The notes beneath the pieces were generated by a model. That model saw only the letters and a list, made by a program, of their open reading frames with translations. It was not told where the DNA came from and did not search any database. This document shows, piece by piece, positions 27,751-39,057 of a stretch of DNA of 39,142 bases. How positions within the stretch are numbered: the first letter of the stretch is position 1; every line of letters starts with the position of its first letter. The translations under genes and the position numbers were made by a program. The stretch is from an uncultured Candidatus Saccharibacteria bacterium. GTDB lineage: Bacteria > Patescibacteriota > Minisyncoccia > Minisyncoccales > CAZJJV01. The stretch is from NCBI GenBank assembly GCA_964546415.1, contig CAZJJV010000001.1:1-39142 (forward strand), written 5' to 3'.

Positions 27751-28926
27751 TTACAAATTTTTCAAAATCTCAATCGCTTTTTCTAACTGGGGATCTCTTC
27801 CTGCCTCAAAATCCTCTTCACTAATTTCTACTTTGATATCTGGTTCTAACCCTCTTTCAGTGATTAAATCTCCTTTGGGGGTCAACCAATGAGCCACCGT
27901 GACCTTTAAAGAGGACCCTCCACTTAATTTTTCTAACTCTTGGACAGAACCCTTTCCAAATGTTTTTTCTCCTATTAATAACACTCCCCGATTATCTCTT
28001 AAGGCACCTGCTAATATTTCTGATCCAGAAGCCGAACCTTCGTTAATTAAAACCACTAACGGATAATCCAAAAAACTGGCTGGCCCCTGAGATTTATAGT
28101 AATTCTTTTTTTTATTTTTGCCAAAGTCTTCAATGGCGACCATCTTTCCTCTTTCCAGAAACCAACCAGCAATATCTTGAACCACCCTTAAATAGCCTCC
28201 GGGATTATTCCTAACATCTAATATAATTTTTTTGGCCGGACTATTCAAGATTTCAAGGGCGGCCTTTTTAAAATCAGAACTAGCCTTTTCGGTAAATTGA
28301 TACAATTGAATATAAGCAATCTCTCCTTCTTTTAGTTCCCATTTTAAAGAAGGAATTTCAATTACCGCTCTCTTAACCTTAAATTCTTTAGGCAAATCCC
28401 ATTCTTTTCGCAAAATAGTAAGGGCGACTTCGGTTCCTTTGGGCCCCCTTATTAATTCTACTGCCTCATCTATGGTGATGTCAGTTGTTGGATTTCCATC
28501 TATTTCCAAAATTTTATCTCCTGCTCTCAAACCAGCTTTCTGGGCTGGTGTTCCTTCTAAGGGAGCAATTACCTGAAGTTGTCCCTTTCTGATTCCAATT
28601 TCCATTCCCACTCCTTCATAGGTGCCCCTGACATCTTCTACAAACCTTTTGGTTTTCTCGGGATCCAAAAATACAGTATAAGGATCTCCTAAAGATTTTA
28701 CCATACCAGCGATTGCTCCATAGAGCATCTCCTGATTGTCAAATTTTGCTTTGTCAACAAACTTTTCTTGCAAAACCTCATAGGTTTCCCAAAACAAAGA
28801 AAAATCAAAGTTTCCTGGAGGATAAATTCTACACTCTGTTTGCTCTTTACCAATCCACAAACCCAAAACAAAACTTATCAAGACAATCAAAATTAAAACT
28901 GGTTTTTTGTTAGGTTTAAAAAGCAT
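27751..28926 (-). CDS. S41-family C-terminal processing (tail-specific) peptidase with a PDZ domain
   Basis: N-terminal signal anchor, PDZ motif AQKAGLRAGDKILEIDG, and catalytic region LINEGSASGSEILAGALRD...GEKTFGKGSVQ. Confidence 0.9.
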   Translation of the reverse strand: MLFKPNKKPVLILIVLISFVLGLWIGKEQTECRIYPPGNFDFSLFWETYEVLQEKFVDKAKFDNQEMLYGAIAGMVKSLGDPYTVFLDPEKTKRFVEDVRGTYEGVGMEIGIRKGQLQVIAPLEGTPAQKAGLRAGDKILEIDGNPTTDITIDEAVELIRGPKGTEVALTILRKEWDLPKEFKVKRAVIEIPSLKWELKEGEIAYIQLYQFTEKASSDFKKAALEILNSPAKKIILDVRNNPGGYLRVVQDIAGWFLERGKMVAIEDFGKNKKKNYYKSQGPASFLDYPLVVLINEGSASGSEILAGALRDNRGVLLIGEKTFGKGSVQELEKLSGGSSLKVTVAHWLTPKGDLITERGLEPDIKVEISEEDFEAGRDPQLEKAIEILKNL

Positions 28927-29009: not shown

Positions 29010-30740
29010 CTATTTTAATTCTTTTCTTATATCTTGAAGTTCTTTCTCAATGGTTTTTCTTGAACATTCTAAGGCTTTTTTTAGATTATCTCTTATTTTC
29101 TTTTCTTCTTTTGTGAGGCCTGGTTTTCCATCAAGATATTCAATTTGTTTTTTTATTTCTTTCCTTAGGCCTTTGAAAGCCATCACGACCGCCCTATTAA
29201 GTTCTCTGGTTTCCCTCTTCAATCTTTTTTTCCAAATTGAAATTCGATACCAAGCGTAAAAGAATATCAACAAAAGCCCAATAATAATAAGAACCAAGGT
29301 AACCATAACACTAAGATAGTTTATTGCTATTTTACCAAATTTTAAAAATGGAGGCAAACCTACAGAAAAGCGATACTCTTTAGAGGGAAAGCTAAGGGCT
29401 CCTTTTTCATTTTGGGTTTGAGCCCAAGTTTTATATTCTCCCTGCTCTAAAGAACCCAAAACAATCCTCCAATAACCTTTCTCGTTTGTCTCAGCCTCTT
29501 TTTTGATCGGTTCCTCGTTTTCTTTTTGGTAAAACAATGTAACATGAGAGTAAGGAATACTCTTTCCTTCTAAGGTTAATTTTGAATCAGGTAAAACATT
29601 TTTGGGACAAGATTCAATTTTTGGAGACTCTATTGGTAAAACCTCAAGATCGGTTTTGGCTTCAGAAAAATTGCCTGCTCTATCAAAGGCCTTGACCACG
29701 ATTTTATGCGTCCCTGGGGCCTGGGGAGGCAACTCTAAAGGATTAGATTTGGTAATTCCAGTTGCCTGAAAGGGCTCCCCTTCTCCTATTTTTACTTCAT
29801 AGTAGGCAATCCCTGAAGGTTTGTCGGTAGTGTTAAATAAGAGAATGGGGGTGGGGTCCGTTGGGTCTTCTTTTTGGATTTCAATTTCAAAAGAAGCAGG
29901 GGGAAGCGTGTCGATCATTATTTTTCTGTGAGTTAGTTTCCCCCAGCCATAACTATTTTTAAAATTTATATGGAAATACCAAATTCCGTCTTTTAGATTT
30001 TCAAAAGAAACCTTGTCTGGTAAGCCCTCGGCTACAAATTTAGGATTAGTGGTGGGGTTTTGATCTAAGCCATAACTTATCTTTTCTACGTCGGGCGGTA
30101 ATTTCCAATGGATTTCAGGACTATTATTTGAATACCATTGATCTTCTTGGGGATGGGTTGAGGAAGAAAGAATAGGGGCAGAAGGGGTGCCAACATGCGT
30201 TTGAAAAGGAGTTTCTTCTGTTGTTTGGGGAGCCGCCCCTGTCTTAAAAGTATAAAGGCCCCCTATCATATTAGTTAAGACATTGGTTCCTTTTCCATCA
30301 GCTGCCAAAATAGAGCCTGAGGAAAAATTGACCTGAGTAGAGACTGGAAGCCTAGATTTAAAAACGATGGTAAAGATGGTTCCTGATTTTCCTGAAAAGG
30401 GCGTGGGGGTTCCCCCTCCAAAAACTATAGTTCCCAAAGAGTTAGAAAAGGTGGGTTCGGTAGTCCAAAGAGAAAAAATGGAACCGGTTTTAGAAAGATT
30501 AACCACTGAAATTTCTTGGGGATTAAAAATTAGGGTTCCTTCTGCTGCATTAATGGGTTGGTCGCCGCTATTTACCCTTACCTTTACTGAAAAAGTTTGG
30601 CCAACCGAATAGGTTCCACTGGCTGGAGAGAGGTATAAAGAAGCCCCTCCAGCCCTTGTTTCGCTTACTCTAAGCCAAAAAAACAAAAGGAGAATAGATA
30701 TTATAAAACCTCCAATTAGTTTTAGTTTTTTATTTTTCAT
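29010..30740 (-). CDS. secreted, C-terminally membrane-anchored surface protein: N-terminal cohesin-like domain, Ig-like modules, TM helix and a charged coiled-coil cytoplasmic tail of about 85 aa
   Basis: Signal peptide ending ETRA|GGASLYLSP. Cohesin-like stretch YSVGQTFSVKVRVNSGDQPINAAEGTLIFNPQEISVV...GTIFTIVFKS. DTLPPASF...SGIAYYEVKIGEG...VKAFDRAGN module. TM helix YLSVMVTLVLIIIGLLLIFFYAWY. Confidence 0.6.
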   Translation of the reverse strand: MKNKKLKLIGGFIISILLLFFWLRVSETRAGGASLYLSPASGTYSVGQTFSVKVRVNSGDQPINAAEGTLIFNPQEISVVNLSKTGSIFSLWTTEPTFSNSLGTIVFGGGTPTPFSGKSGTIFTIVFKSRLPVSTQVNFSSGSILAADGKGTNVLTNMIGGLYTFKTGAAPQTTEETPFQTHVGTPSAPILSSSTHPQEDQWYSNNSPEIHWKLPPDVEKISYGLDQNPTTNPKFVAEGLPDKVSFENLKDGIWYFHINFKNSYGWGKLTHRKIMIDTLPPASFEIEIQKEDPTDPTPILLFNTTDKPSGIAYYEVKIGEGEPFQATGITKSNPLELPPQAPGTHKIVVKAFDRAGNFSEAKTDLEVLPIESPKIESCPKNVLPDSKLTLEGKSIPYSHVTLFYQKENEEPIKKEAETNEKGYWRIVLGSLEQGEYKTWAQTQNEKGALSFPSKEYRFSVGLPPFLKFGKIAINYLSVMVTLVLIIIGLLLIFFYAWYRISIWKKRLKRETRELNRAVVMAFKGLRKEIKKQIEYLDGKPGLTKEEKKIRDNLKKALECSRKTIEKELQDIRKELK

Positions 30741-31674
30741 TTTCCTTTTGGAGCCTTAACTTCCTCTTTAAATAAGTCCAATACCCTACCCCAATTAAAA
30801 TTAAAACCAAGCCAATTATCCAGTTAATAATTGAGAACCTTTTAGGTAAATAAGGCCTAAACTCAACAATCCTTTCATTTCCTGCTTTATCTACCGCCTT
30901 TACTTTTATTATACTTTTTAAATTTTGATCTTCCAATAAATGGGGGCTCTCAGCTATTTTCCAAGGATTCTCTCCCTCTTTTACTTCATAATGGTCGATA
31001 CCGGTTTGTTTGTCTTGGGTATTAAAAATTATAAAATATCTTCCTTCAAAAACCTGAGGATCTTTTAAAACCAAGATACCAAATGGTTCTGGAGGGGCGG
31101 TATCTTTTTTTAATTCTTTTTCTAAAATTTTTTCCAAAGATTCACCCCTCTCTTTTAAAATTTGATATATAGCTTTTTCTAATTTTAATTGGGCTTCTGT
31201 CCCCAAACCATCATTTAATAATACTTTTGAGTTTTTTGAAAATTTAACTTCAACCACACCCTTTTCTCCTACTAAAATTTCAGGAACCCTAAAGATAATT
31301 TCTCCTAAAATGTTGCTTTCGCCAGGATCACCGGCAATCTTTCCGCAATAACCTCCGGGTATTCCACCAGAAAAAGAAATTTTACCATCTTCAATTTTGG
31401 GTTTTTCTAACCATATAGAAATCAAAGATTCACCCATCAAAAAATCTTTAACTACTAAAAGATTTTTGTTGTATTCAATTTCTGCTTTTATGGTGTTGAT
31501 ACACTCTTTTTCAGGATCAATTTTAACCTTCACCCCAAACTCCTGCCCCATTTTTAACTGAGCCCTTGATGGTTCAAAATATAAACTCGCCCCCCATGCC
31601 CCAAGGGGCAACACTAAACCGACACCAAACAAGACACTAAACAGAAACAAAACTTTTTTATGTTTTTTTGCCAT
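30730..31674 (-). CDS. secreted, C-terminally membrane-anchored cohesin-like surface protein (shorter paralogue of the 29010-30740 product)
   Basis: Signal peptide ending GAWG|ASLYFEP. MGQEFGVKVKIDPEKECINTIKAEIEYNKNLLVV. Shared module DTAPPEPF...TGIDHYEVKEGEN...VKAVDKAGN. TM helix IINWIIGLVLILIGVGYWTY. Overlaps the next gene by 11 nt. Confidence 0.6.
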   Translation of the reverse strand: MAKKHKKVLFLFSVLFGVGLVLPLGAWGASLYFEPSRAQLKMGQEFGVKVKIDPEKECINTIKAEIEYNKNLLVVKDFLMGESLISIWLEKPKIEDGKISFSGGIPGGYCGKIAGDPGESNILGEIIFRVPEILVGEKGVVEVKFSKNSKVLLNDGLGTEAQLKLEKAIYQILKERGESLEKILEKELKKDTAPPEPFGILVLKDPQVFEGRYFIIFNTQDKQTGIDHYEVKEGENPWKIAESPHLLEDQNLKSIIKVKAVDKAGNERIVEFRPYLPKRFSIINWIIGLVLILIGVGYWTYLKRKLRLQKENEK

Positions 31675-32044
31675 AGATCCTTCGGATTATTTGGACACCA
31701 TTTGAAGTACCAAAATTGATTAAATAACCAACATTATAGTTAGAGGATTTTAAATAATACCAAAATTGTTTAATGTCATCCTGAGTCAATTTTGGTTTTA
31801 CCTTTACCTCAACTATGATTTTATTCTCAACTACTAAATCGGGGATATAGGTACCAACTTTTCTCCCATTGTAAAAAATATCTATTCTTTTTTCTTTCTC
31901 AACTTTGAGATTTTTGTCTTTTAAACCATAATAGAATGAGTTTTGATATACTTTTTCTTTATGCCGATTCCTAAACTTCTTATAAATATCAAATGCTACT
32001 CCCTGGATAACGTATGATTCTTGTTTATATAAAAGCTTAGCCAT
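31658..32044 (-). CDS. GxxExxY-family protein (PD-(D/E)XK nuclease-like fold)
   Basis: HKEKVYQNSF (ExxY), YIPDLVVENKIIVEVKVKP (D...ExK core) and QFWYYLKSSNYNVGYLINFG match the family layout. Overlaps the downstream gene by 17 nt. Confidence 0.65.
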   Translation of the reverse strand: MAKLLYKQESYVIQGVAFDIYKKFRNRHKEKVYQNSFYYGLKDKNLKVEKEKRIDIFYNGRKVGTYIPDLVVENKIIVEVKVKPKLTQDDIKQFWYYLKSSNYNVGYLINFGTSNGVQIIRRIYGKKT

Positions 32045-32101
32045 AAGTTTAGATTCAGTTTTGCGTAAAGTTTGGTATCGGTTTAGTGAATGATAGCTTC
32101 G

Positions 32102-33259
32102 CTAGCCGGTCCAGTAATAAAGCATAATTGAAAAATCTGGCAAATTAACTATTCCGTCTTGGTTTTGATCAGCGCAAGGATTTTCTCTTTTCCACCAATA
32201 AAGCAAAATAGAAAAGTCAATTAAATTAACCCTACCATCTTTATTTAAATCAGCGCCAGGGCAAACAAATCCTGTAACCTTTCGCCCTACATAAAAAGCC
32301 AAAACCTGAGAAAAAGAAGATTCTATATTTTCTTTTGGGTCTTTGGCCTTGGCTCTGGCAGTGTGGGTTCCCTCTTCTAAAACCAAAGTATTAATCGATT
32401 CCTCCCACCTCCCTTCTTCATCAGAAAAAGTGGTTTGGACTATTTCTGAAGATTCAATATGAACAAAAACCTGGGCATTGGGGACGGTAGAACCAAAAAT
32501 ATTCAAGTTTTCTCCCTTTTTGAAGGAAGTTTTAGGTAATTCTATGGTAGGGGGCAAAAAAATACCCGAAATAGTGGTGGTCATATCTTTAATTACCGTG
32601 GCTGTAAAGGAAAAGGTAATAGACCTTCTACCCTTTTTGTCTTCTGCCCACAAAGAGAAGGTCCAAAGTCCAGGGGTGGCTTTTTTGACTTCTATTCTAA
32701 AATTGGCTGAATCATCTGCCTTTTTGGTAGCCACCACCCTTCCATCTTGTAAAAGAGTAATTAAGGCTTCAGGATAGGCCTTCCCTTTAATAATTACCCT
32801 TGTTTCTTTGGTTACTGTTTCTCCACCGCCCCCGCCTCCAAAAGAGACAGGCGGAGCAGGTTCGGTTTGGCAAACCTCATCACAACCGTCTCCAGCCAGA
32901 TTATTTCCATCGTCACAGGTTTCTCCATACTGAGTTTGTAAGATTCCATCTCCACAATAAGGAGCCCAGCCATCACAACTTGTATTACAATACCTGCCTT
33001 CAATAGTAGAAGAGTAAAGGCCGTTACTAGAACCATCATCGCAGACTTCTGGCCCCTCAACTATTCCATTGCCACAAATGTAAATTACCACCGAGGTTTG
33101 AAGAGAGCTAGCCTTGACCTGATTTTTAAATAAAAAAGGACCCAAAATTGGTCCTGTTAAAATTAAGAAAAACAGAATTAAAGATGCTAGATTGACTTGG
33201 TTTCTTATTTCATACCTTTTTCCTTTTTCGCCAAAATTTAATTCCTTGGTATAAACCAT
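32102..33259 (-). CDS. secreted protein with Cys-rich CxxG...CDDGN repeats, two Ig/carboxypeptidase-regulatory-like modules and a C-terminal duplicated dockerin-like segment
   Basis: CGNGIVEGPEVCDDG and YCGDGILQTQYGETCDDGNNLAGDGCDEVC (Myxococcus-type cysteine-rich repeat pattern). C-terminus DLNKDGRVNLIDFSILLYWW and DQNQDGIVNLPDFSIMLYYW (dockerin repeats, about 32105-32260). Only one ATG is available, giving a 50-nt overlap with the upstream gene. Confidence 0.6.
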   Translation of the reverse strand: MVYTKELNFGEKGKRYEIRNQVNLASLILFFLILTGPILGPFLFKNQVKASSLQTSVVIYICGNGIVEGPEVCDDGSSNGLYSSTIEGRYCNTSCDGWAPYCGDGILQTQYGETCDDGNNLAGDGCDEVCQTEPAPPVSFGGGGGGETVTKETRVIIKGKAYPEALITLLQDGRVVATKKADDSANFRIEVKKATPGLWTFSLWAEDKKGRRSITFSFTATVIKDMTTTISGIFLPPTIELPKTSFKKGENLNIFGSTVPNAQVFVHIESSEIVQTTFSDEEGRWEESINTLVLEEGTHTARAKAKDPKENIESSFSQVLAFYVGRKVTGFVCPGADLNKDGRVNLIDFSILLYWWKRENPCADQNQDGIVNLPDFSIMLYYWTG

Positions 33260-34172
33260 AGCTTATTCCAGCCAAAACAACAAAAAGACAAATAAGGGTT
33301 GTTATTTTATCTTTTAAGGGCAAATCAAAGAACCCTGCTTTTTGATAATTACTAATGGTGCCCTGAGGGAGAATGCTTAAATGAATTTTTCCTCGATTTA
33401 CCACCTCCTCTTTCTTATAAATTTTATATTTTGCCCAATAACTGCCAGGTTTTAAATTGGTAAGCAATTTTGCTGTCACCCACTCTGTTTTGAAAGGTTC
33501 AACTTTTTTATCTATTTTCTTTGTTTCAATTGATTCTAAAAGTTTTTCCTCTTTGCTATCATAAATATCAAAATGAATTTTACTAGGAGCTGCTTTTATG
33601 TTTCCAGTATTTTCTATTTGAATTGAAAATCTAATAATTCCTGGGAAATGCCAAAAGAGCCATTTGTAACCCTCTTCTAAATCTGAAACCCTAACCCCCC
33701 TTACCTTAAAGTCAAAAATTTCTTTGGTTACATTTAAATTAACATCAATTTGCCCTCCCAGGGTAATACTTACTGTACCTAGTTCTGGAGCCTTCAAAGG
33801 AGTTGTTTTTACCCTAATTGACCCCTTGTATCTCTTAAATTGAGCATTTTCTGGTACCTTTACGCTAATAATTATTGGAAATTGTTTTTCTCCCTTAGGT
33901 AAGATAAATTCTTTTCCTTTATCTACCGAAAACCAACTATTAGCTTCTGGTACATTGAAAATTAACTCAACCTTCCAATCTTCGTCTGGTTGATCTCTAA
34001 CTAAAATAATTTTTTGTTCAAAATAAGAACCCTGGGTTAGGTTTTCGTTCCTAACATGGGGAGGAGAAATTCCAAAACCCGCCCTTGCTGCCGAGGGCAA
34101 CAAACACAAAACTGACACTAAACTAAACATTAAACTAACACTAAGCCAAAATTTTCGCCAGCCCTTTAACAT
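33210..34172 (-). CDS. secreted two-beta-sandwich protein with a C-terminal TM anchor and basic tail (architecture reminiscent of DUF916/DUF3324 CscA-type proteins)
   Basis: Signal peptide ending SAARA|GFGISPP. SYFEQKIILVRDQPDEDWKVEL and IQIENTGNIKAAP (Ig-like strand patterns). C-terminal TTLICLFVVLAGISYGLYQGI followed by KFWRKRKKV. Confidence 0.45.
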   Translation of the reverse strand: MLKGWRKFWLSVSLMFSLVSVLCLLPSAARAGFGISPPHVRNENLTQGSYFEQKIILVRDQPDEDWKVELIFNVPEANSWFSVDKGKEFILPKGEKQFPIIISVKVPENAQFKRYKGSIRVKTTPLKAPELGTVSITLGGQIDVNLNVTKEIFDFKVRGVRVSDLEEGYKWLFWHFPGIIRFSIQIENTGNIKAAPSKIHFDIYDSKEEKLLESIETKKIDKKVEPFKTEWVTAKLLTNLKPGSYWAKYKIYKKEEVVNRGKIHLSILPQGTISNYQKAGFFDLPLKDKITTLICLFVVLAGISYGLYQGIKFWRKRKKV

Positions 34173-34244
34173 ATTTTAAATTCTAAACAATTAAACAGAT
34201 TCGATTCTGTTTCGTGTTTTAATTTCACTCCTGTTTTGTGCTTA

Positions 34245-35966
34245 TTACTGCCAGTCGTCAGATTCACTTGTTACCCCTGCAATGGTGTTAGTTCCGGTAT
34301 AAGTACCAGGAGGAGTACCATCAGGAACCTCCAACAACCAATAGATAGCCTTAGATGCAGGGCTTCCGGTGGTGGTAGTTTTTGGGCAGTTAAGTTCGTA
34401 TTCAGTAGCGCTAGTGCTTAAATCAGTACCATTGCCATAACTAAAGCCACTAGTGAAAGAGTGTTCTTGATAACTTACGGCAATTGTATTGCCTCCAGAG
34501 GTCATATCTGTTCCGGAAAGCTCTACATCTAGTCCTACATTTCCGGTCGCCTTGACGGTGGTGGATTGCTCAGAAGAAACATTTCCTGCAGAAACATTTC
34601 CATAACCGATACTTGATTCTACCACATCATAAGCGAGAAACATTCCCACATCATTTCCGTCAGCATCTTCTACCAAGCCACTATCAGCTGAATCATCATC
34701 TATGGCTTTGACTGAGACCAACCAATTTTGACTAGGATATTCGGTGTCTGTTCCGGTAGGATCAGCATGGTACTGGAGAGAAAAAGTGCAGGTCCAGGTA
34801 GCGTTTGAGTCGCTAGTGCCACCACAAGAGCCATCGTCTTGGGAACAACTAGGATTCCAAAGAGCATAAGCCTCAGGGTAACAATAGTTGGCATTATATT
34901 CTCCTGCTTCATCACATCCTGTTTGGCCAATTCCTGAACGATAAACATTGATGATTGCTGAAGCAATTTCATTTTCCGAAGAAGAATTTTCGCAACTATT
35001 ATCATCAGTAACAGTAAATTTTACCTTAAAGCCTGAGGTTTCTCCTTCAGCCACTGTTAAGCTTAAACTTCCTGACTCATCGGTATCAAGTAGCTCAATA
35101 GAAGAGGCAGTAATGCTTGGAGCAACATTACTTACAGTTAAGGTAGAATCAGTTCCCTGGGATCCTCCACTGGCTTCAAAACCATGATTGTCTACGACAA
35201 ATCCATAGGCTGAATAATTATCATCTGGATAGGGGGTGGTAATATCATAAGAACAACTGGGGTTGCTGGCAGAGGCTGTGCTATGACACCATTCCCCGTC
35301 TCCACAAGAAGGACTGTCTCCTCCGGTGAAAGAATCGCTTTTACAAACATAAAGAGTAACTGTATCTGAGCTCCCATCAGTATCTGAATCTGATGCGGTG
35401 GTTGTCCAGGTTACAGTGTTGCCAGGGTCAGTTGGTGAATCATCTGAATAAGCAGTAAATGAGGGCCGATGATTTACCTTAAAAGGAGTTCCTGAGTCTC
35501 CTGAACCTTGGTTTGCTGAGGAACATTGAGCACTGGAACCGTTGCCGTCACAAGCGAAAGCATACCACTCATTAGATTCTGAATCTGCATCTTGGGTAGT
35601 ATAAGAGCAAGATGCTTCGCTTTCATCAGCAGTAGCAGTAGATATACACCACTCACCTCCTGGACATGTTGGCGCTCCTCCATTAGTCGCACTTATCTCA
35701 TTTGTTTTACAGACAGCCAAATACCAATCTTCTCCATTAGGATCGTCAGCGGTGGCTTTGAAGGTAACATTTTGACCAGCGTCTGTTGGAGAAGTGCTAG
35801 AAGAAGTAGGATCTTCGTGAGGATCTACGGTAAAACTGGGAGGAGCATTCCCTACTGTTACTGAAGTGGAAACATCGGTTGCCTCTACCAGTTTTTGCCA
35901 AATCAATACTACCCCTCCACTGATGACCAACAAACACAAAAGTCCCAGCAAAATTCTCTTAGCCAT
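34245..35966 (-). CDS. large acidic, Cys-paired, Ser/Thr/Asp-rich secreted protein with tandem Ig/cadherin-like modules and a C-terminal module shared with the 36110-37966 product
   Basis: N-terminal signal/anchor. Two tandem repeats share PSFT...VCK(T/S)...C(P/G)xGEWC(I/H)STA...SCSY. A third module starts VSNVAPSI. The C-terminus has TGNVGLDVELSGTDMT...IYWLLEVP...GTYTGT. Very few Lys/Arg. Confidence 0.6.
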   Translation of the reverse strand: MAKRILLGLLCLLVISGGVVLIWQKLVEATDVSTSVTVGNAPPSFTVDPHEDPTSSSTSPTDAGQNVTFKATADDPNGEDWYLAVCKTNEISATNGGAPTCPGGEWCISTATADESEASCSYTTQDADSESNEWYAFACDGNGSSAQCSSANQGSGDSGTPFKVNHRPSFTAYSDDSPTDPGNTVTWTTTASDSDTDGSSDTVTLYVCKSDSFTGGDSPSCGDGEWCHSTASASNPSCSYDITTPYPDDNYSAYGFVVDNHGFEASGGSQGTDSTLTVSNVAPSITASSIELLDTDESGSLSLTVAEGETSGFKVKFTVTDDNSCENSSSENEIASAIINVYRSGIGQTGCDEAGEYNANYCYPEAYALWNPSCSQDDGSCGGTSDSNATWTCTFSLQYHADPTGTDTEYPSQNWLVSVKAIDDDSADSGLVEDADGNDVGMFLAYDVVESSIGYGNVSAGNVSSEQSTTVKATGNVGLDVELSGTDMTSGGNTIAVSYQEHSFTSGFSYGNGTDLSTSATEYELNCPKTTTTGSPASKAIYWLLEVPDGTPPGTYTGTNTIAGVTSESDDWQ

Positions 35967-36109
35967 TTTTTATTTAAATTGTTTTAAATAGATTTATTTT
36001 AGAAAGCGGATCGACCTTTAAGGGCTATTATTTTATTATAACAAACCAATCATCTTTTGTTTAATAATTATCTTATTATATCTTCAAAAACCTTCTTCGT
36101 AAACCAATA

Positions 36110-37966
36110 TTATGGGCAAAAACTGTCTGAAACCACATCAAAAGAGATGTTTCCAGAATAGGTTTGGCTGGGTTTGTCTAAAGGAACCTTTAACTTCCAA
36201 TAAATATATTCTGATTGGTCAGAAGGATGGGTAGTGGGTTTGGTGGTGGATAATTCATGACAGGTAGGGGTGTTGGTCAAAGCAGTGCCTTCGCTGTCCC
36301 AATTAAAGCCAGAAGTAGAAGAATATTTCTGTTGGCTTACCGGAATAGAATAAGTAGACCAGGTTAGGTCAGTTCCTGAAAGTTGAACATCCACGGCTAC
36401 ATTACCAGTGGTAGTAATTAAAACTTGTTTTTCTACTGAAACCTGATTAGGATTGACAGTGCCGTAATTAATGCTAGAGACATCTAACTTAAAAGCAGCC
36501 AATTCATTAATGGTTACAGTTTGGGTATTGAAGGCAGATTGAGATTGAGAATCAGTGGCCGTAACCTTTGCTGTCCACTGATTGGAAGCATTAGCATGAA
36601 ACCAGACATCTACAGTGGCTTGGGCTTCAGCAGAAGTGTCTCCAGGACCGGTGCAGGTATCATCCACTTCAGTAAAGGTTAAATTAGGATAACAATCATT
36701 ATCATCAGCAGTGCAACTATCTGTCTCTGCTCCAGCGTCATAAAAAACCCCACTAATTGAGCCATTTACAAAAACATCTTCACAACCATTGAGGTCAGAA
36801 ATGGTGGCAGTAATGGTTACGGTGGTGGTTGAATCGGCATTCAAATCTATGGGGCTTGGCAAGATGCTAATACTGTCTACTGTTGGAGACTGGTTTCCAA
36901 CCTGAAGAGTAGTGCTACCAGAGATGGCTACCGGAAAGGTGCCACTAACTGTGCCACTAGAAATTGTTACATCACTACTAGAAGAAATTTCAATATCAAG
37001 GGTTTCTCCATCTGAGGCTCCAGAACCCACATCTAAAACCACATAAAGACAAACCTGAGATGTCCCCACCGTCATTGTGCCACTAACAGTGGCTTTTTCG
37101 CTCGCATTAAAAGAGGCGGCTGTACCAAAAAGGGTTTCTGTCCCATCATAATTACAGGTGGCGGCGGTTTCATAATATATATCAACATTTGAAAGATTAG
37201 AATTAGCATTCACGGTGCCAGTTTCACTAATCACAATTTGGCTGACGGTTACGGTGCTAAAATCCGTTGCCATTGTAAAGGCCCCACCCACATAACTATT
37301 GGTTGAAGGAATATCCATTCTTGAAACCTGGCTTCCTGTACTTTGTATCGTAAGGGTAGGAAGGGTGTAGGTAACTGTAATCCAAACATAATCAAAACGA
37401 ATAGCATCAGGTGCGGCCCCATCCTTATTAGTAAATTCTATATCAACATTTTGGAGCTCTGATTTGGTATCCACACCTTGGGCATATAGATCATAGGTTA
37501 AATCCCCGCTCCAGCCAGTGATATCAGTTGGTTTAATAGTCGTGTTTGTTAATCCGCTTCCATTATCATAACGCACATAATTGGGCCCATTGTAACCATC
37601 CTCTGCCCCATATTCTAAGTGTAAAACAGCCCCAGTAATGTTTGCATTATCTGGAATAGAAGAAACATCAAAAGTATCAATATACATTATCTGGTTTTTA
37701 TCAACAAAATAGCATCCATCACCAGCTGAATCAGGTGCTGTGCCGTCTGGATCACAAGTAGCATCATCTGCCGTAATTTCACTTAAGGCAGAGGGCGAAG
37801 AATCGTTTGAATGCTTTGAGGCCGGTAAAATATTCACTGTATCAGCTTTTATTTGTTCGATTCTAAAAGGAGGAGGTAGTCCTTTCCAGGTTTGCCACCA
37901 ATCAGAAAAGACCCAAAGAAGCATTAAAAAGATTATAATAGAAAACTTTAAAAACCCCTTTTTCAT
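36110..37966 (-). CDS. large acidic secreted multi-domain surface protein, C-terminal half paralogous to the 34245-35966 product
   Basis: N-terminal signal anchor. Beta-rich modules (ITGAVLHLEY...FDYVWITVTY; VTVSQIVISETGTVNANSNLSNVDIYY). VGNQSPTV Ig-like module. The C-terminus has TGNVAVDVQLSGTDLT...YIYWKLKVP...QTYSGN. Confidence 0.6.
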   Translation of the reverse strand: MKKGFLKFSIIIFLMLLWVFSDWWQTWKGLPPPFRIEQIKADTVNILPASKHSNDSSPSALSEITADDATCDPDGTAPDSAGDGCYFVDKNQIMYIDTFDVSSIPDNANITGAVLHLEYGAEDGYNGPNYVRYDNGSGLTNTTIKPTDITGWSGDLTYDLYAQGVDTKSELQNVDIEFTNKDGAAPDAIRFDYVWITVTYTLPTLTIQSTGSQVSRMDIPSTNSYVGGAFTMATDFSTVTVSQIVISETGTVNANSNLSNVDIYYETAATCNYDGTETLFGTAASFNASEKATVSGTMTVGTSQVCLYVVLDVGSGASDGETLDIEISSSSDVTISSGTVSGTFPVAISGSTTLQVGNQSPTVDSISILPSPIDLNADSTTTVTITATISDLNGCEDVFVNGSISGVFYDAGAETDSCTADDNDCYPNLTFTEVDDTCTGPGDTSAEAQATVDVWFHANASNQWTAKVTATDSQSQSAFNTQTVTINELAAFKLDVSSINYGTVNPNQVSVEKQVLITTTGNVAVDVQLSGTDLTWSTYSIPVSQQKYSSTSGFNWDSEGTALTNTPTCHELSTTKPTTHPSDQSEYIYWKLKVPLDKPSQTYSGNISFDVVSDSFCP

Positions 37967-38184: not shown

Positions 38185-39057
38185 ATGAATGTTATAATAA
38201 CCAACCCACTAAATCTTAAAGAATTAAAAAAAGAACTTAAAGAAGAGGGATCAGAAAAAATTCACGTCCTTAGTGATTTTGATAAAACCCTAACTTGTGC
38301 TTTTGTTGATGGTGAAAAAACACCTTCATTAATCTCTATTTTGCGTGACGGAAATTACTTAACCCCTGATTATGCTGAGAAAGCCCATGCTTTGTTTGAC
38401 AAATATCATCCTATTGAAATTGATCCAGGTATTCCATTAGAAGAAAAGAAAAAAGCAATGCATGAATGGTGGAAAACCCATTTTGATTTACTTATTAAAT
38501 GTGGATTAAAAAAGAAAGACATTGAAGATGTTGTTAATTCAAACAAAGTAAAATTTAGAGAAAGCGCCTTAGAACTTATTAATTTACTTTATAAAAACAA
38601 TATTCCATTGGTTATAATTTCCTCTAGTGGGCTTGGCAAATACGCTTTAGAACTTTTATTAAAAAAACATAACAGCCTATATGATAATGTTTACATAATT
38701 TCTAATGACTATATTTGGGATGAAAACGGAAAAGCCATAGACGTAAAAGAACCAATTATTCATTGTATGAACAAAGATGAAACTGTGTTGGATGAATTCC
38801 CTTTTTATAAAGAAATAGAAAAAAGAAGGAATGTTGTTTTGCTTGGGGACAGCCTTGCAGATATTGATATGGTACAGGGTTTTGATTATAAACATTTACT
38901 AAAAATAGGTTTTCTAAACGAAAAAGTAGAAGAACTTCTTCCTGAATATAAAAAGCGTTTCGATGTTATTATTCCCAACGATGGCTCTATGGGCTTTGTA
39001 TTGGAACTAATGAGAGAAATCTTGAGCCAACCAAAACCCCCTAGTAACACTCCTTGA
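38185..39057 (+). CDS. HAD-superfamily pyrimidine 5'-nucleotidase of the UMPH-1 / cytosolic 5'-nucleotidase III type
   Basis: Motif I VLSDFDKTLT (DxDxT). Near-colinear resemblance to animal NT5C3 as I recall it: YHPIEIDPGIPLEEKKKAMHEWW, IPLVIISSSGLG, YIISNDYIWDENG, IIHCMNKD, VVLLGDSLADIDM and LLKIGFLNEKVEELLPEYKKRFDVI. Confidence 0.75.
   Translation: MNVIITNPLNLKELKKELKEEGSEKIHVLSDFDKTLTCAFVDGEKTPSLISILRDGNYLTPDYAEKAHALFDKYHPIEIDPGIPLEEKKKAMHEWWKTHFDLLIKCGLKKKDIEDVVNSNKVKFRESALELINLLYKNNIPLVIISSSGLGKYALELLLKKHNSLYDNVYIISNDYIWDENGKAIDVKEPIIHCMNKDETVLDEFPFYKEIEKRRNVVLLGDSLADIDMVQGFDYKHLLKIGFLNEKVEELLPEYKKRFDVIIPNDGSMGFVLELMREILSQPKPPSNTP

Follow-up and report, generated by a model that had tools for sequence, protein, structure and literature searches.

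The locus described here raises the question of what a cohesin-dockerin set does on the surface of an ultra-small bacterium when no carbohydrate-active enzyme is encoded beside it. Cohesin-dockerin pairs outside cellulosomes are already known, and no paper on such an operon in CPR bacteria was found in the literature. The window analyzed is a stretch of 39,142 nucleotides from the 574-kb, 85% complete genome of an ultra-small uncultured CPR/Paceibacteria bacterium, and the genes discussed all lie on its minus strand in the order p573-s320-d385-c314-c576, with g128 sitting between d385 and c314 (Table 1). The initial annotation had placed two membrane-anchored cohesin-like proteins and one dockerin-bearing Cys-rich protein in a single operon. 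All of the described features are present on the minus strand at the coordinates given, and the three genes do share an operon but are not contiguous, being interrupted by g128. The g128 product has no signal peptide and is missing at the d385/c314 position in all 57 related loci; sequence comparison identifies it as a lineage-specific insertion outside the conserved system. The p573-s320-d385-c314-c576 order is seen again in >20 related loci spread over several candidate phyla, and the cohesin/dockerin trio is the downstream part of this larger conserved operon rather than a self-standing unit. The absence of carbohydrate-active enzymes noted initially holds, with searches for CAZyme and CBM families (GH, CE, PL, and CBM) giving no match on any of the seven operon proteins.

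Table 1. Positions and supporting evidence of the genes and predicted modules of the cohesin-dockerin operon
Feature	Residues	Position (nt)	Strand	Evidence or character
c576, 576-aa type-I membrane protein		29010..30740	-	ORF, topology, Pfam, NCBIfam
c576 predicted cohesin module	33-166	30243..30644	-	PF00963, AF2 + Foldseek
c576 OmpL47-type beta-barrel-like module	~277-363	29652..29912	-	NF047446 E 2.2e-7
c576 Big_13 Ig-like module	381-448	29397..29600	-	PF19077 E 6.6e-8, 33.4 bits, cut-off 27
c576 C-terminal TM segment	476-494	29259..29315	-	Kyte-Doolittle mean 3.11 over 19 residues
c576 conserved charged cytoplasmic tail	498-576	29013..29249	-	27-homologue alignment
c314, 314-aa type-I membrane protein		30730..31674	-	ORF, Pfam, NCBIfam, topology
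c314 predicted divergent cohesin	~29-172	31159..31590	-	hhalign to c576 module; PF00963 below cut-off
c314 OmpL47-like module	~190-267	30874..31107	-	NF047446 E 3.3e-4, below cut-off
c314 C-terminal TM segment	280-298	30781..30837	-	hydropathy/topology analysis
g128, 128-aa GxxExxY / PD-(D/E)XK protein		31658..32044	-	PF13366 E 2.5e-30, TIGR04256 E 1e-28
d385, secreted 385-aa protein		32102..33259	-	ORF, Pfam, NCBIfam, topology
d385 Cys-rich head	~61-134	32858..33079	-	DUF4215 / myxo_disulf_rpt repeats
d385 two Ig-like modules	Big_6 150-220, Big_13 257-315	32315..32812	-	Pfam
d385 predicted dockerin	337-385	32105..32251	-	PF00404, AF2 + Foldseek
Upstream partners of d385 (s320, p573, p618)		33210..37966	-	operon context, outside cohesin-dockerin pair
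s320		33210-34172	-	signal + C-terminal TM
p573		34245-35966	-	acidic, Cys-paired, secreted; paralogue of p618
p618		36110-37966	-	acidic, Cys-paired, secreted; paralogue of p573

The arrangement of c576 from the N to the C terminus comprises a signal peptide, a cohesin, a middle module of unknown type, an OmpL47-like module, a Big_13 module, a TM segment, and a cytoplasmic tail of ~80 amino acids. The N-terminal module is a cohesin on the evidence of sequence profile and predicted fold. PF00963, with a cut-off of 24.1, scores 25.9 bits when the module is searched alone and 22.8 bits over the entire protein; all 29 members of the c576 cohesin family match it, and the AF2 model (pLDDT 91.3) is a type-I-like nine-strand β-sandwich lacking helices. 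The top 50 Foldseek matches of this model in the PDB are exclusively cohesins, the best being type I (6kgf_C, E 7.9e-10), with target-normalised TM scores of 0.70-0.78 against PDB cohesins. Profile searches with both the c576 and the c314 cohesin families found no significant PDB cohesin (best E 0.14). The protein has >844 homologues, several of which carry the NCBI name "cohesin domain-containing protein", and the c576 type is the cohesin protein kept wherever just one is present. Near-invariant positions of the tail among 27 homologues are Phe-522, Leu-525, Leu-542, Glu-546, Leu-553, Leu-557, Asp-570, and Leu-575.

The gene for c314 overlaps that of c576 by 11 nt, and its product has a simpler layout of signal peptide, divergent cohesin, OmpL47-like module, TM segment, and short tail. 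The claim of a cohesin pattern in both proteins, borne out for c576 by Pfam and fold, needs qualification for c314, where PF00963 reaches 16.4-17.7 bits, under the Pfam cut-off, and matches 9 of the 24 family members. The homology is nevertheless clear in hhalign, which aligns the c314 module with the c576 cohesin at a probability of 100% (E 5.5e-40), and by this profile comparison it is a divergent paralogue. It is distinguished by seven inserted residues following strand 6 and by a Cys-58-Cys-110 pair, both cysteines of which are kept in 20/24 family members. By topology analysis, both proteins begin with a hydrophobic signal and carry a single TM segment, located C-terminally, as annotated, and the similar starts of the mature chains directly after the signal are likewise present, GGASLYLSP in c576 and GASLYFEP in c314, with ASLYLSP and AAxLYLxP as the family consensuses at the mature start of cohesin proteins. 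The second shared module, recognized from its DTxPP...SGI..YEVK...D(R/K)AGN pattern, is of OmpL47 type, the NCBIfam matches being below cut-off in both proteins (for c576, NF047446 scores 31.2 bits against a cut-off of 40), and phmmer cross-matches between c314 and c576 homologues span it.

d385 is composed of a signal, two Cys-rich DUF4215 repeats, a Pro/Gly linker, Big_6 and Big_13 modules, and a C-terminal dockerin, with no TM segment. The C-terminal duplication, DLNKDGRVNLIDFSILLYWW (residues 337-356) and DQNQDGIVNLPDFSIMLYYW (residues 364-383), forms two F-hand repeats, the second starting 27 residues after the first, and the protein terminates in ...YYWTG. The reading of this duplication as a dockerin stands, and profile and model together identify the C terminus as a compact dockerin. 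With PF00404 (cut-off 22.9), the tail alone scores 29.6 bits and full-length d385 23.1 bits, and 57/57 family members match. Both Ca loops are intact with ligand positions 1, 3, 5, and 12 retained; 53-57 of the 57 homologues have Asp-1, Asn-3, Asp-5, and Asp-12 in both loops (position 5 of the second loop being Asp or Asn), and 54-57 have the Phe-Ser-Ile of both helices and Trp-64. The AF2 model (pLDDT 86) has two helices, and its top 15 Foldseek matches in the PDB are dockerins only (2y3n_B, TM 0.78, 38% identity), the E-values for this 66-residue model being weak (best 9.8e-3). The dockerin is the exact C-terminal end in every one of the 57 full-length homologues. Mean p-distances of 0.42 for the dockerin and 0.49 for the c576 cohesin make these the least diverged modules of their proteins, the others lying at 0.57-0.67. 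The domain calls are supported by HMMs, predicted folds, and family-wide conservation.

The Cys-rich repeats and Ig-like modules annotated on the dockerin protein are recovered as DUF4215/TIGR02232, Big_6, and Big_13, with head scores of 41 bits (PF13948) and 51.5 bits (TIGR02232), both above cut-offs. The head is, however, not a constant feature, being common to 25/57 homologues and swapped or absent in about half, whereas all 57 align from about residue 133 onward so that Ig-Ig-dockerin forms the constant part. The head is similar to residues 863-913 of pappalysin (E 1.5e-6).

Counting with the family HMMs over the genome gives a closed set of one dockerin and two cohesins, all inside this operon. 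The Pfam search recovers the same single dockerin, leaving no dockerin protein beyond d385 and no dockerin-bearing enzyme in the 574 kb. A survey of 201 genomes of the class finds both modules in 61, the dockerin only in 5, the cohesin only in 5, and neither in 130 (Fisher p 3e-39, not corrected for phylogeny), and the set occurs in about a third of related species. An adjacent pair is present in 60 of the 61 genomes with both modules; of 100 dockerins, 84 have a cohesin within 5 kb and 16 are not next to one. No cohesin is detectable in five of the 66 dockerin-positive genomes; conversely, five genomes have a cohesin but no detectable dockerin. The commonest dockerin:cohesin ratio is 1:2 (21/71 genomes), with 1:1 in 19. 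A mirror-tree test, bearing on the specificity of the two cohesin paralogues, gives no sign of co-evolution between dockerin and cohesin once shared phylogeny is taken into account (partial correlations -0.02 and 0.06).

We favor, with moderate confidence, a non-cellulosomal tether on the Paceibacteria (CPR) cell surface, in which a dedicated cohesin-dockerin pair serves a non-enzymatic surface protein, the operon probably pinning a variable surface protein, not cellulases, to the cell. The receptor/ligand pair for surface display proposed initially is putative and has strong indirect support, being strengthened by the confinement of the one dockerin and two cohesins of the genome to one operon, by the co-occurrence and adjacency of the modules across the class, and by the dockerin terminus common to all d385 homologues. 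d385 would be exported by Sec, its constant Ig-Ig stalk ending in a compact, Ca-binding, nearly symmetric dockerin that would plug into c576, the candidate universal anchor with its conserved cytoplasmic tail, by way of the type-I-like cohesin placed at the very start of the mature chain. A further or alternative socket for the dockerin may be c314, which would act as an accessory paralogue with a disulfide-stapled loop insertion. A single C-terminal TM helix would fix each anchor in the membrane and Ig-like stalks would raise both, so that the variable head of d385, here a Cys-rich DUF4215 knob, would be displayed away from the membrane, where it probably contacts a partner cell or substrate.

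An absence of mutual binding, the cohesin heads and dockerin tail acting independently and being co-encoded merely as one surface apparatus (for example, a host or wall ligand bound by the heads, with the dockerin as a Ca-dependent stabiliser or wall-binding tail), is unlikely. The mirror-tree result, the 10/71 positive genomes with just one of the two modules, and the presence in the operon of p573, p618, and s320, which lack an informative family match, are consistent with it, but both modules retain their family-defining features in a genome that offers neither another partner, the adjacency described above is frequent, and no part of d385 is better conserved than the dockerin, which is terminal without exception. 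Among the cohesins and dockerins characterised to date, none is known to act other than through the pair. The two dockerin helix faces might engage the c314 and c576 cohesins simultaneously in an obligate 1:1:1 complex coupling two membrane anchors, one with a conserved cytoplasmic tail. The near-duplicate repeats, which both keep L-x-D-F-S-I-(L/M)-(L/M)-(Y/F)-x-W, the prevalence of the 1:2 ratio, and the overlap of the c314 and c576 genes point in this direction. Such a clamp is nonetheless quite unlikely; the 1:1 genomes and entire lineages with the c576 type only, e.g. Falkowbacteria-type loci, mean that two cohesins are not required, and in known solved complexes the symmetric dockerins have a dual binding mode (mentioned in the title of 2vn5) in which a single cohesin is bound at a time.

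Very doubtful is a larger organelle in which p573/p618 and s320 form the main structure, possibly a WxL/DUF916 (Csc)-like wall-associated complex, and the trio is only an anchoring or adaptor sub-part with d385 joining the structure to the membrane anchors. Family searches of p573, p618, and s320 gave no informative match and tie none of them to WxL or DUF916, and in Falkowbacteria-type loci, where d385 and c576 are present, homologues of p573 or s320 were not detected, against which stand the conserved gene order across candidate phyla and, in Kaiserbacteria-type loci, giant p618-like proteins of 1,400-1,970 aa after the cohesin genes and an additional secreted protein of ~380 aa between d385 and c314. 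A minimal cellulosome-like rack holding carbohydrate-active enzymes on the cell is highly improbable even though cellulosomal type I modules are the best matches of both folds; only one cohesin is present on each anchor, and with the only dockerin on a non-enzymatic protein and GH, CE, PL, and CBM families absent from the operon, the rack is effectively refuted for this genome at 85% completeness.

Classical cellulosomes (C. thermocellum CipA, C. cellulolyticum CipC, and C. acetobutylicum CipA) supply the best structural matches of the c576 cohesin (6kgf_C, 4fl4, 2vn5, and 1g1k, E 1e-8 to 1e-10), but unlike these the operon is without a multi-cohesin scaffoldin, CBM, or dockerin-bearing enzymes and has one dockerin to two cohesins. 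Another comparison is with the single-cohesin surface anchors of cellulosomes, C. thermocellum OlpA/OlpC (3ul4 and 4dh2) and R. flavefaciens ScaE (2zf9), in which a cell-bound protein with one cohesin directly captures a dockerin-bearing protein. The c576 model has target-normalised TM scores of 0.71 (4dh2_A) and 0.75 (3ul4_A) with the OlpA/OlpC structures, the sequence identity to anchors of this type being only 10-19%. These anchors are wall-bound via SLH modules or sortase and take enzymes or scaffoldins as cargo, whereas here the predicted anchoring is through a C-terminal TM helix, followed by a conserved cytoplasmic tail, and the only cargo is a non-enzymatic Cys-rich/Ig-like protein. 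The Archaeoglobus fulgidus cohesin (2xdh) and Clostridium perfringens NagH-NagJ (2ozn; cohesin 2vo8) are non-cellulosomal modules employed, as proposed here, in roles other than plant-cell-wall degradation; the highest target-normalised TM score of the c576 model (0.78) is with 2xdh, and the 2ozn_B dockerin superposes on that of d385 with an rmsd of 1.0 Å over 47 columns. The enzymes linked by those pairs are soluble or secreted, or else the role of the pair is unknown, and none of them belongs to a lineage-wide operon in which TM-anchored cohesins serve one dedicated cargo. In a further difference, the d385 dockerin is shorter, as reflected in the spacing of its repeats, and has hydrophobic helix faces (L-x-D-F-S-I-L-L-Y-W-W) and an invariant C-terminal WTG.

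The cohesin-dockerin genes lie in a run of seven genes on the minus strand of the window and span d385, a secreted protein of 385 residues with a C-terminal dockerin, to c576, a membrane-anchored cohesin protein of 576 residues, with the second cohesin protein, c314 (314 residues), encoded between them. The open reading frames, signals, transmembrane segments, motifs and repeats described in the initial annotation were all found in the window. A hydrophobic signal at the N terminus and one transmembrane segment at the C terminus are present in both c576 and c314, and d385 has the N-terminal signal only and no C-terminal segment. Genes for an S41 protease, L9 and CTP synthase are located downstream of c576. 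The genome holding the window as contig C1 comprises 574 kb in 65 contigs, and its relatives are Paceibacteria/Parcubacteria-type CPR bacteria, including Nealsonbacteria, Falkowbacteria, Kaiserbacteria, Nomurabacteria and others.

Coordinates of the genes and features discussed, in the window and in related loci (L numbers)
Feature	Sequence	Coordinates	Strand	Remark
p618	window	36110-37966	-	
p573	window	34245-35966	-	
s320	window	33210-34172	-	
p618, p573 and s320 region	window	33210-37966	-	
d385	window	32102-33259	-	
d385 dockerin region with Cys positions	window	32105-32302	-	
g128	window	31658-32044	-	128 aa, GxxExxY / PD-(D/E)XK
c314	window	30730-31674	-	
c576	window	29010-30740	-	
c576 cytoplasmic tail	window	29013-29249	-	
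S41 C-terminal processing protease	window	27751-28926	-	PF03572 E 2e-47, with PDZ; 83 nt after c576
290-aa protein	window	38185-39057	+	UMPH-1 pyrimidine 5'-nucleotidase family PF05822, E 8.4e-69
Between-gene protein	L027	8255-8788		Falkowbacteria-type
Between-gene protein	L042	8391-8870		Falkowbacteria-type
Between-gene protein	L029	8417-8869		Falkowbacteria-type
Between-gene protein	L046	8451-8954		Falkowbacteria-type
Between-gene protein	L018	7560-8009		Falkowbacteria-type
Extra ~380-aa protein	L071	6431-7576		Kaiserbacteria-type
Extra ~380-aa protein	L043	6011-7156		Kaiserbacteria-type
Extra ~380-aa protein	L062	7013-8176		Kaiserbacteria-type
Extra ~380-aa protein	L037	1974-3107		Kaiserbacteria-type

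The signal is followed by GGASLYLSP in c576 and by GASLYFEP in c314 (family consensuses ASLYLSP and AAxLYLxP), a stretch that forms the first strand of the following module in the c576 model. The full-length proteins score below the 24.1-bit gathering threshold of the Pfam cohesin family PF00963 (c576 22.8 bits, c314 16.4 bits), and the isolated 190-residue N terminus of c576 exceeds it with 25.9 bits, all 29 aligned members of its family matching (best E 6.6e-12). The isolated c314 module stays under the threshold at 17.7 bits, with matches in nine of its 24 homologues. The cohesin profile thus supports the initial annotation for the c576 module but not for c314 taken alone (16.4-17.7 bits). 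The assignment of c314 to the family comes instead from an hhalign comparison with the c576 type (probability 100%, E 5.5e-40, 149 columns), which shows the two modules, at the level of sequence profiles, to be paralogues.

The AlphaFold2 model of c576 residues 1-190, calculated from a 29-row alignment with a mean pLDDT of 91.3, is free of helices and is built of nine main strands and a short hairpin, the arrangement of the nine-stranded cohesin sandwich. The top 50 Foldseek matches in the PDB are cohesins only and are led by type I modules (TM 0.70-0.78, rmsd 2.1-3.2), the top type I match being CohA2 of C. acetobutylicum (6kgf_C, E 7.9e-10) and other leading ones being C. thermocellum CipA (4fl4), C. 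cellulolyticum 2vn5 and 1g1k, OlpC (4dh2) and OlpA (3ul4). A target-normalised TM of 0.78 is reached by 2xdh, a non-cellulosomal cohesin from A. fulgidus, and types II and III score below type I with rmsd values of 5-8 Å. Profiles of both cohesin families searched against PDB sequences gave no significant cohesin (best 5g5d, E 0.14), and single-sequence phmmer with c576 gave no match. By these comparisons the c576 and c314 modules are a divergent branch of the cohesin family. A difference between the two types in the hhalign alignment is an insertion of seven residues after strand 6 of the c314 type (GGIPGGYCGKIAGDPGESN vs GGGTPTPFSGKSG), and 20 of 24 members retain the Cys-58/Cys-110 pair of c314. 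In solved complexes dockerins are bound by the 8-3-6-5 sheet, of which strand 6 is a part, so a difference in specificity between c314 and c576 might arise at this insertion.

The C terminus of d385 is formed by DLNKDGRVNLIDFSILLYWW (residues 337-356) and DQNQDGIVNLPDFSIMLYYW (residues 364-383), after which only TG precedes the stop codon. The predicted dockerin passes the Pfam dockerin profile PF00404 (gathering threshold 22.9 bits) with 23.1 bits for the full protein and 29.6 bits for the 66-residue tail, and all 57 homologous tails match (best E 1.6e-12). A 12-residue Ca loop with D1, N3, D5 and D12 followed by a helix occurs twice, as in the tandem F-hand. Positions 1 and 12 are Asp in 57/57 sequences in both repeats, position 3 is Asn in 53 (repeat 1) and 56 (repeat 2) of the 57, and position 5 is Asp in every repeat 1 and Asp or Asn in 55 of the second repeats; this retention of the loop ligands across the 57-row alignment bears out the tandem duplication as a dockerin signature. 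The F-S-I of both helices and the last Trp are likewise kept in 54-57 of 57 dockerins, an invariance that suggests an interface common to the whole class. An AlphaFold2 model of the tail (pLDDT 86) places short helices at tail residues 27-35 and 54-62, and its best 15 Foldseek matches in the PDB are dockerins only. The model superposes on 2y3n_B with a TM of 0.78 at 38% identity and on the NagH dockerin 2ozn_B with an rmsd of 1.0 Å, and calmodulin-type EF hands give TM values <0.3. The small size of the domain (~50 residues) keeps the Foldseek E-values weak, the best being 9.8e-3. The repeats of this compact dockerin start 27 residues apart and have hydrophobic helix faces, and the domain is always placed at the very C terminus (...WTG).

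A Cys precedes repeat 1 in 37 of the 57 dockerins and repeat 2 in 26, the latter never without the former, so that the pair co-occurs in 26/57; this paired occurrence suggests a disulfide staple. In L017 and L080 Cys is present within both helices instead (FLCWW / LLCCW).

A six-frame search of the genome with PF00963 gave no match at E <=1, and family-specific HMMs, built from the family alignments and run on all six frames of the 574 kb, were needed. These locate exactly one dockerin and two cohesins, all in the d385-c314-c576 operon, and both a regular expression for the double Ca loop and the Pfam dockerin model find d385 only. The c576 family has >844 members in a large protein collection, most with a precomputed PF00963 match, and NCBI names several of them "cohesin domain-containing protein." A scan of species-representative genomes gave 290 relatives; d385-c314-c576 is a recurrent gene order among the 79 retained loci, and the longer order p573-s320-d385-c314-c576 is seen in >20 loci from several candidate phyla. 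In an even sampling of the class (201 genomes), the dockerin occurs in 66 genomes and the cohesin in 66, with both in 61, dockerin only in 5, cohesin only in 5 and neither in 130 (Fisher p 3e-39, ignoring shared ancestry). Of the 100 dockerins in these genomes, 84 have a cohesin no more than 5 kb away on their contig, and an adjacent pair is present in 60 of the 61 genomes with both modules. The commonest dockerin:cohesin counts are 1:2 (21 genomes) and 1:1 (19 genomes), with a few genomes reaching up to six dockerins or seven cohesins, and a sole cohesin protein is of the long c576 type. The d385 and c314 homologues of L003 share a reading frame and are separated by one TAA and 5 codons.

The second module shared by c576 and c314 resembles the OmpL47-type β-barrel domain NF047446 (c576 E 2.2e-7, 31.2 bits; c314 E 3.3e-4, 21.1 bits); the E-values are significant and the modules are thus related, yet they are not counted as family members because both scores are below the curated cut-off of 40 bits. 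c576 also contains a Big_13 module (33.4 bits) and, at residues ~185-275, a conserved middle module with no family match. Its cytoplasmic tail of ~80 residues is charged and helix-prone, with near-invariant positions across 27 homologues that suggest an intracellular partner, whereas the c314 tail has 16 residues only. The N-terminal part of d385 is composed of two Cys-rich repeats (DUF4215 / myxo_disulf_rpt) resembling a pappalysin segment at E 1.5e-6, after which come a Pro/Gly linker, Big_6 and Big_13. Residues ~133-385 (Ig-Ig-dockerin) form a constant part that aligns in 57/57 homologues, and the Cys-rich head is common to only 25 of them. In 28 of the 57 the alignment begins past residue 125, and the N-terminal part varies in length between next to nothing, in proteins of 285-320 aa, and ~400 unrelated residues; Falkowbacteria-type loci have a head of 300-400 aa with no relation in sequence, and others lack one. 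Divergence is lowest in the dockerin and the c576 cohesin, whose mean pairwise distances are 0.42 and 0.49, respectively, and other modules have distances of 0.57-0.67.

The operon is probably best explained as a non-enzymatic surface tether, in which the d385 dockerin would be held by the cohesin of c576 or c314 and would display the variable head. Following secretion of d385, its terminal dockerin would, with Ca bound, plug into the cohesin at the mature N terminus of c576, c314 or both, which would stand as type I membrane proteins on Ig-like stalks, and the complex would hold the head outward. Co-occurrence, adjacency and the closed 1:2 set point indirectly to c576 and c314 as putative partners of the dockerin, and it is rather unlikely that the modules are present without mutual binding. 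Mirror-tree analysis of the 34 loci with all three genes gives raw dockerin-cohesin distance-matrix correlations of 0.64-0.66, no higher than with non-partner modules, and the partial correlations controlled for the d385 body and c576 stalk (-0.02 and 0.06) carry no signal beyond phylogeny. Simultaneous binding of both cohesins by the near-symmetric dockerin, giving a ternary clamp, would suit the 1:2 counts and is unlikely, being weakened by the many 1:1 genomes. It is distinctly unlikely that the d385-c314-c576 trio is an adaptor within a larger p573/p618/s320 structure, two genes of which share the longer conserved order. The receptor/ligand display proposed in the initial annotation is partly supported, its domain calls and surface-display logic standing. 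The folds, topology, module counts and co-occurrence are established by the analysis; we infer the binding itself and its dependence on Ca, as well as which cohesin is used and what the head does.

A cellulosome-like enzyme rack is highly improbable and effectively excluded for this genome, and a cellulosome reading was rejected since no enzyme bears a dockerin. Missing from the operon are a multi-cohesin scaffoldin (c576 and c314 have one cohesin each), a CBM (no CBM family match to any operon protein) and a dockerin-bearing enzyme (the single dockerin in this 85% complete genome is on the non-enzymatic d385). No carbohydrate-active family is found among the operon proteins, in agreement with the initial annotation. 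The SLH/LPXTG anchors of OlpA, OlpC, SdbA and ScaE have no counterpart, with no SLH or sortase-signal family match, and the anchor here is a C-terminal transmembrane helix followed by a cytoplasmic tail. The nearest analogues in function are the single-cohesin anchoring proteins OlpA, OlpC and ScaE and in context the non-cellulosomal pairs of A. fulgidus and C. perfringens. The operon differs from all of these in its transmembrane-helix anchor with a conserved cytoplasmic tail, its one dedicated non-enzymatic cargo with a swappable head, its compact and hydrophobic dockerin and its class-wide conservation. It is well known that cohesins and dockerins also occur in organisms that are not cellulolytic. 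PMC12484212 cites the A. fulgidus cohesin-dockerin pair. A full-text literature search found no paper on a cohesin-dockerin operon in CPR/Patescibacteria.

To our knowledge, the mode of attachment of Paceibacteria to partner cells is largely unknown, and none is in pure culture. The operon is a concrete, expressible candidate for this function; it is conserved, self-contained, present in about one-third of the sampled class genomes and variable in its head. More tentatively, it may represent a lineage-wide contact organelle of these ultra-small bacteria with three elements: a universal c576-type cohesin stalk with a transmembrane anchor, whose conserved cytoplasmic tail would link the surface with the inside of the cell; an adaptor of constant Ig-Ig-dockerin build; and a swappable head, Cys-rich here, by which the host or partner would be contacted. 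Valency would be adjusted through the accessory cohesin paralogues, of which a locus has 1 to 4. If true, cohesin-dockerin coupling would be a general way in which these episymbionts mount and exchange adhesins. The cohesin-dockerin pair is a well-understood high-affinity protein pair, and its biology would be extended by a membrane-integrated anchor in contrast to a wall-bound scaffoldin and by a dedicated 1:1 or 1:2 pair in contrast to many enzymes per scaffold. The compact ~50-residue dockerin with its hydrophobic face may serve as an orthogonal pair in designer assemblies.

Among the neighboring genes, p618 and p573 encode acidic, Lys-poor, Cys-paired secreted paralogues and s320 a protein with a signal and C-terminal transmembrane segment; the three are conserved upstream partners of d385-c314-c576 in >20 loci. 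They have no informative family match, the closest being a weak PACE-CTERM S-layer-like match of s320 (E 4.7e-6); a WxL/DUF916-like nature of these proteins is conceivable. In a scan for promoters and terminators, counts did not exceed those of shuffled sequence. g128, the gene between d385 and c314, overlaps the start of c314 by 17 nt. It was rejected as an operon member and is regarded as a lineage-specific insertion because no gene occupies its position in 57/57 related loci; a distant GxxExxY gene is present close to the cohesin gene of L068. The S41 protease is absent as a neighbor in the related loci examined (L002, L003 and L005).

Falkowbacteria-type single-cohesin loci have a cytoplasmic protein of 150-177 aa encoded between the dockerin and cohesin genes that resembles, by eye only, a small heat-shock (α-crystallin/Hsp20) protein. 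In Kaiserbacteria-type loci an extra Thr/Ser-rich secreted protein of ~380 aa, ending ...LTY(I/V)ATP(T/M/V)F, is encoded between the dockerin and c314-type genes, and downstream of the c576-type gene these loci have a giant p618-like protein (1,400-1,970 aa) and a cohesin-related open reading frame of ~250 aa. The full d385-c314-c576 set, 47% identical to that of the window, is also present in L009 (NJBH01000039.1), a contig submitted under the name "Promethearchaeota archaeon Loki_b32" that most likely stems from a CPR bacterium and was mis-binned into an Asgard MAG; L042, L058 and L079 are among several records labeled Gammaproteobacteria or Planctomycetia that look mis-binned likewise. The 290-aa protein on the plus strand of the window matches the UMPH-1 family, which is best known from eukaryotes.
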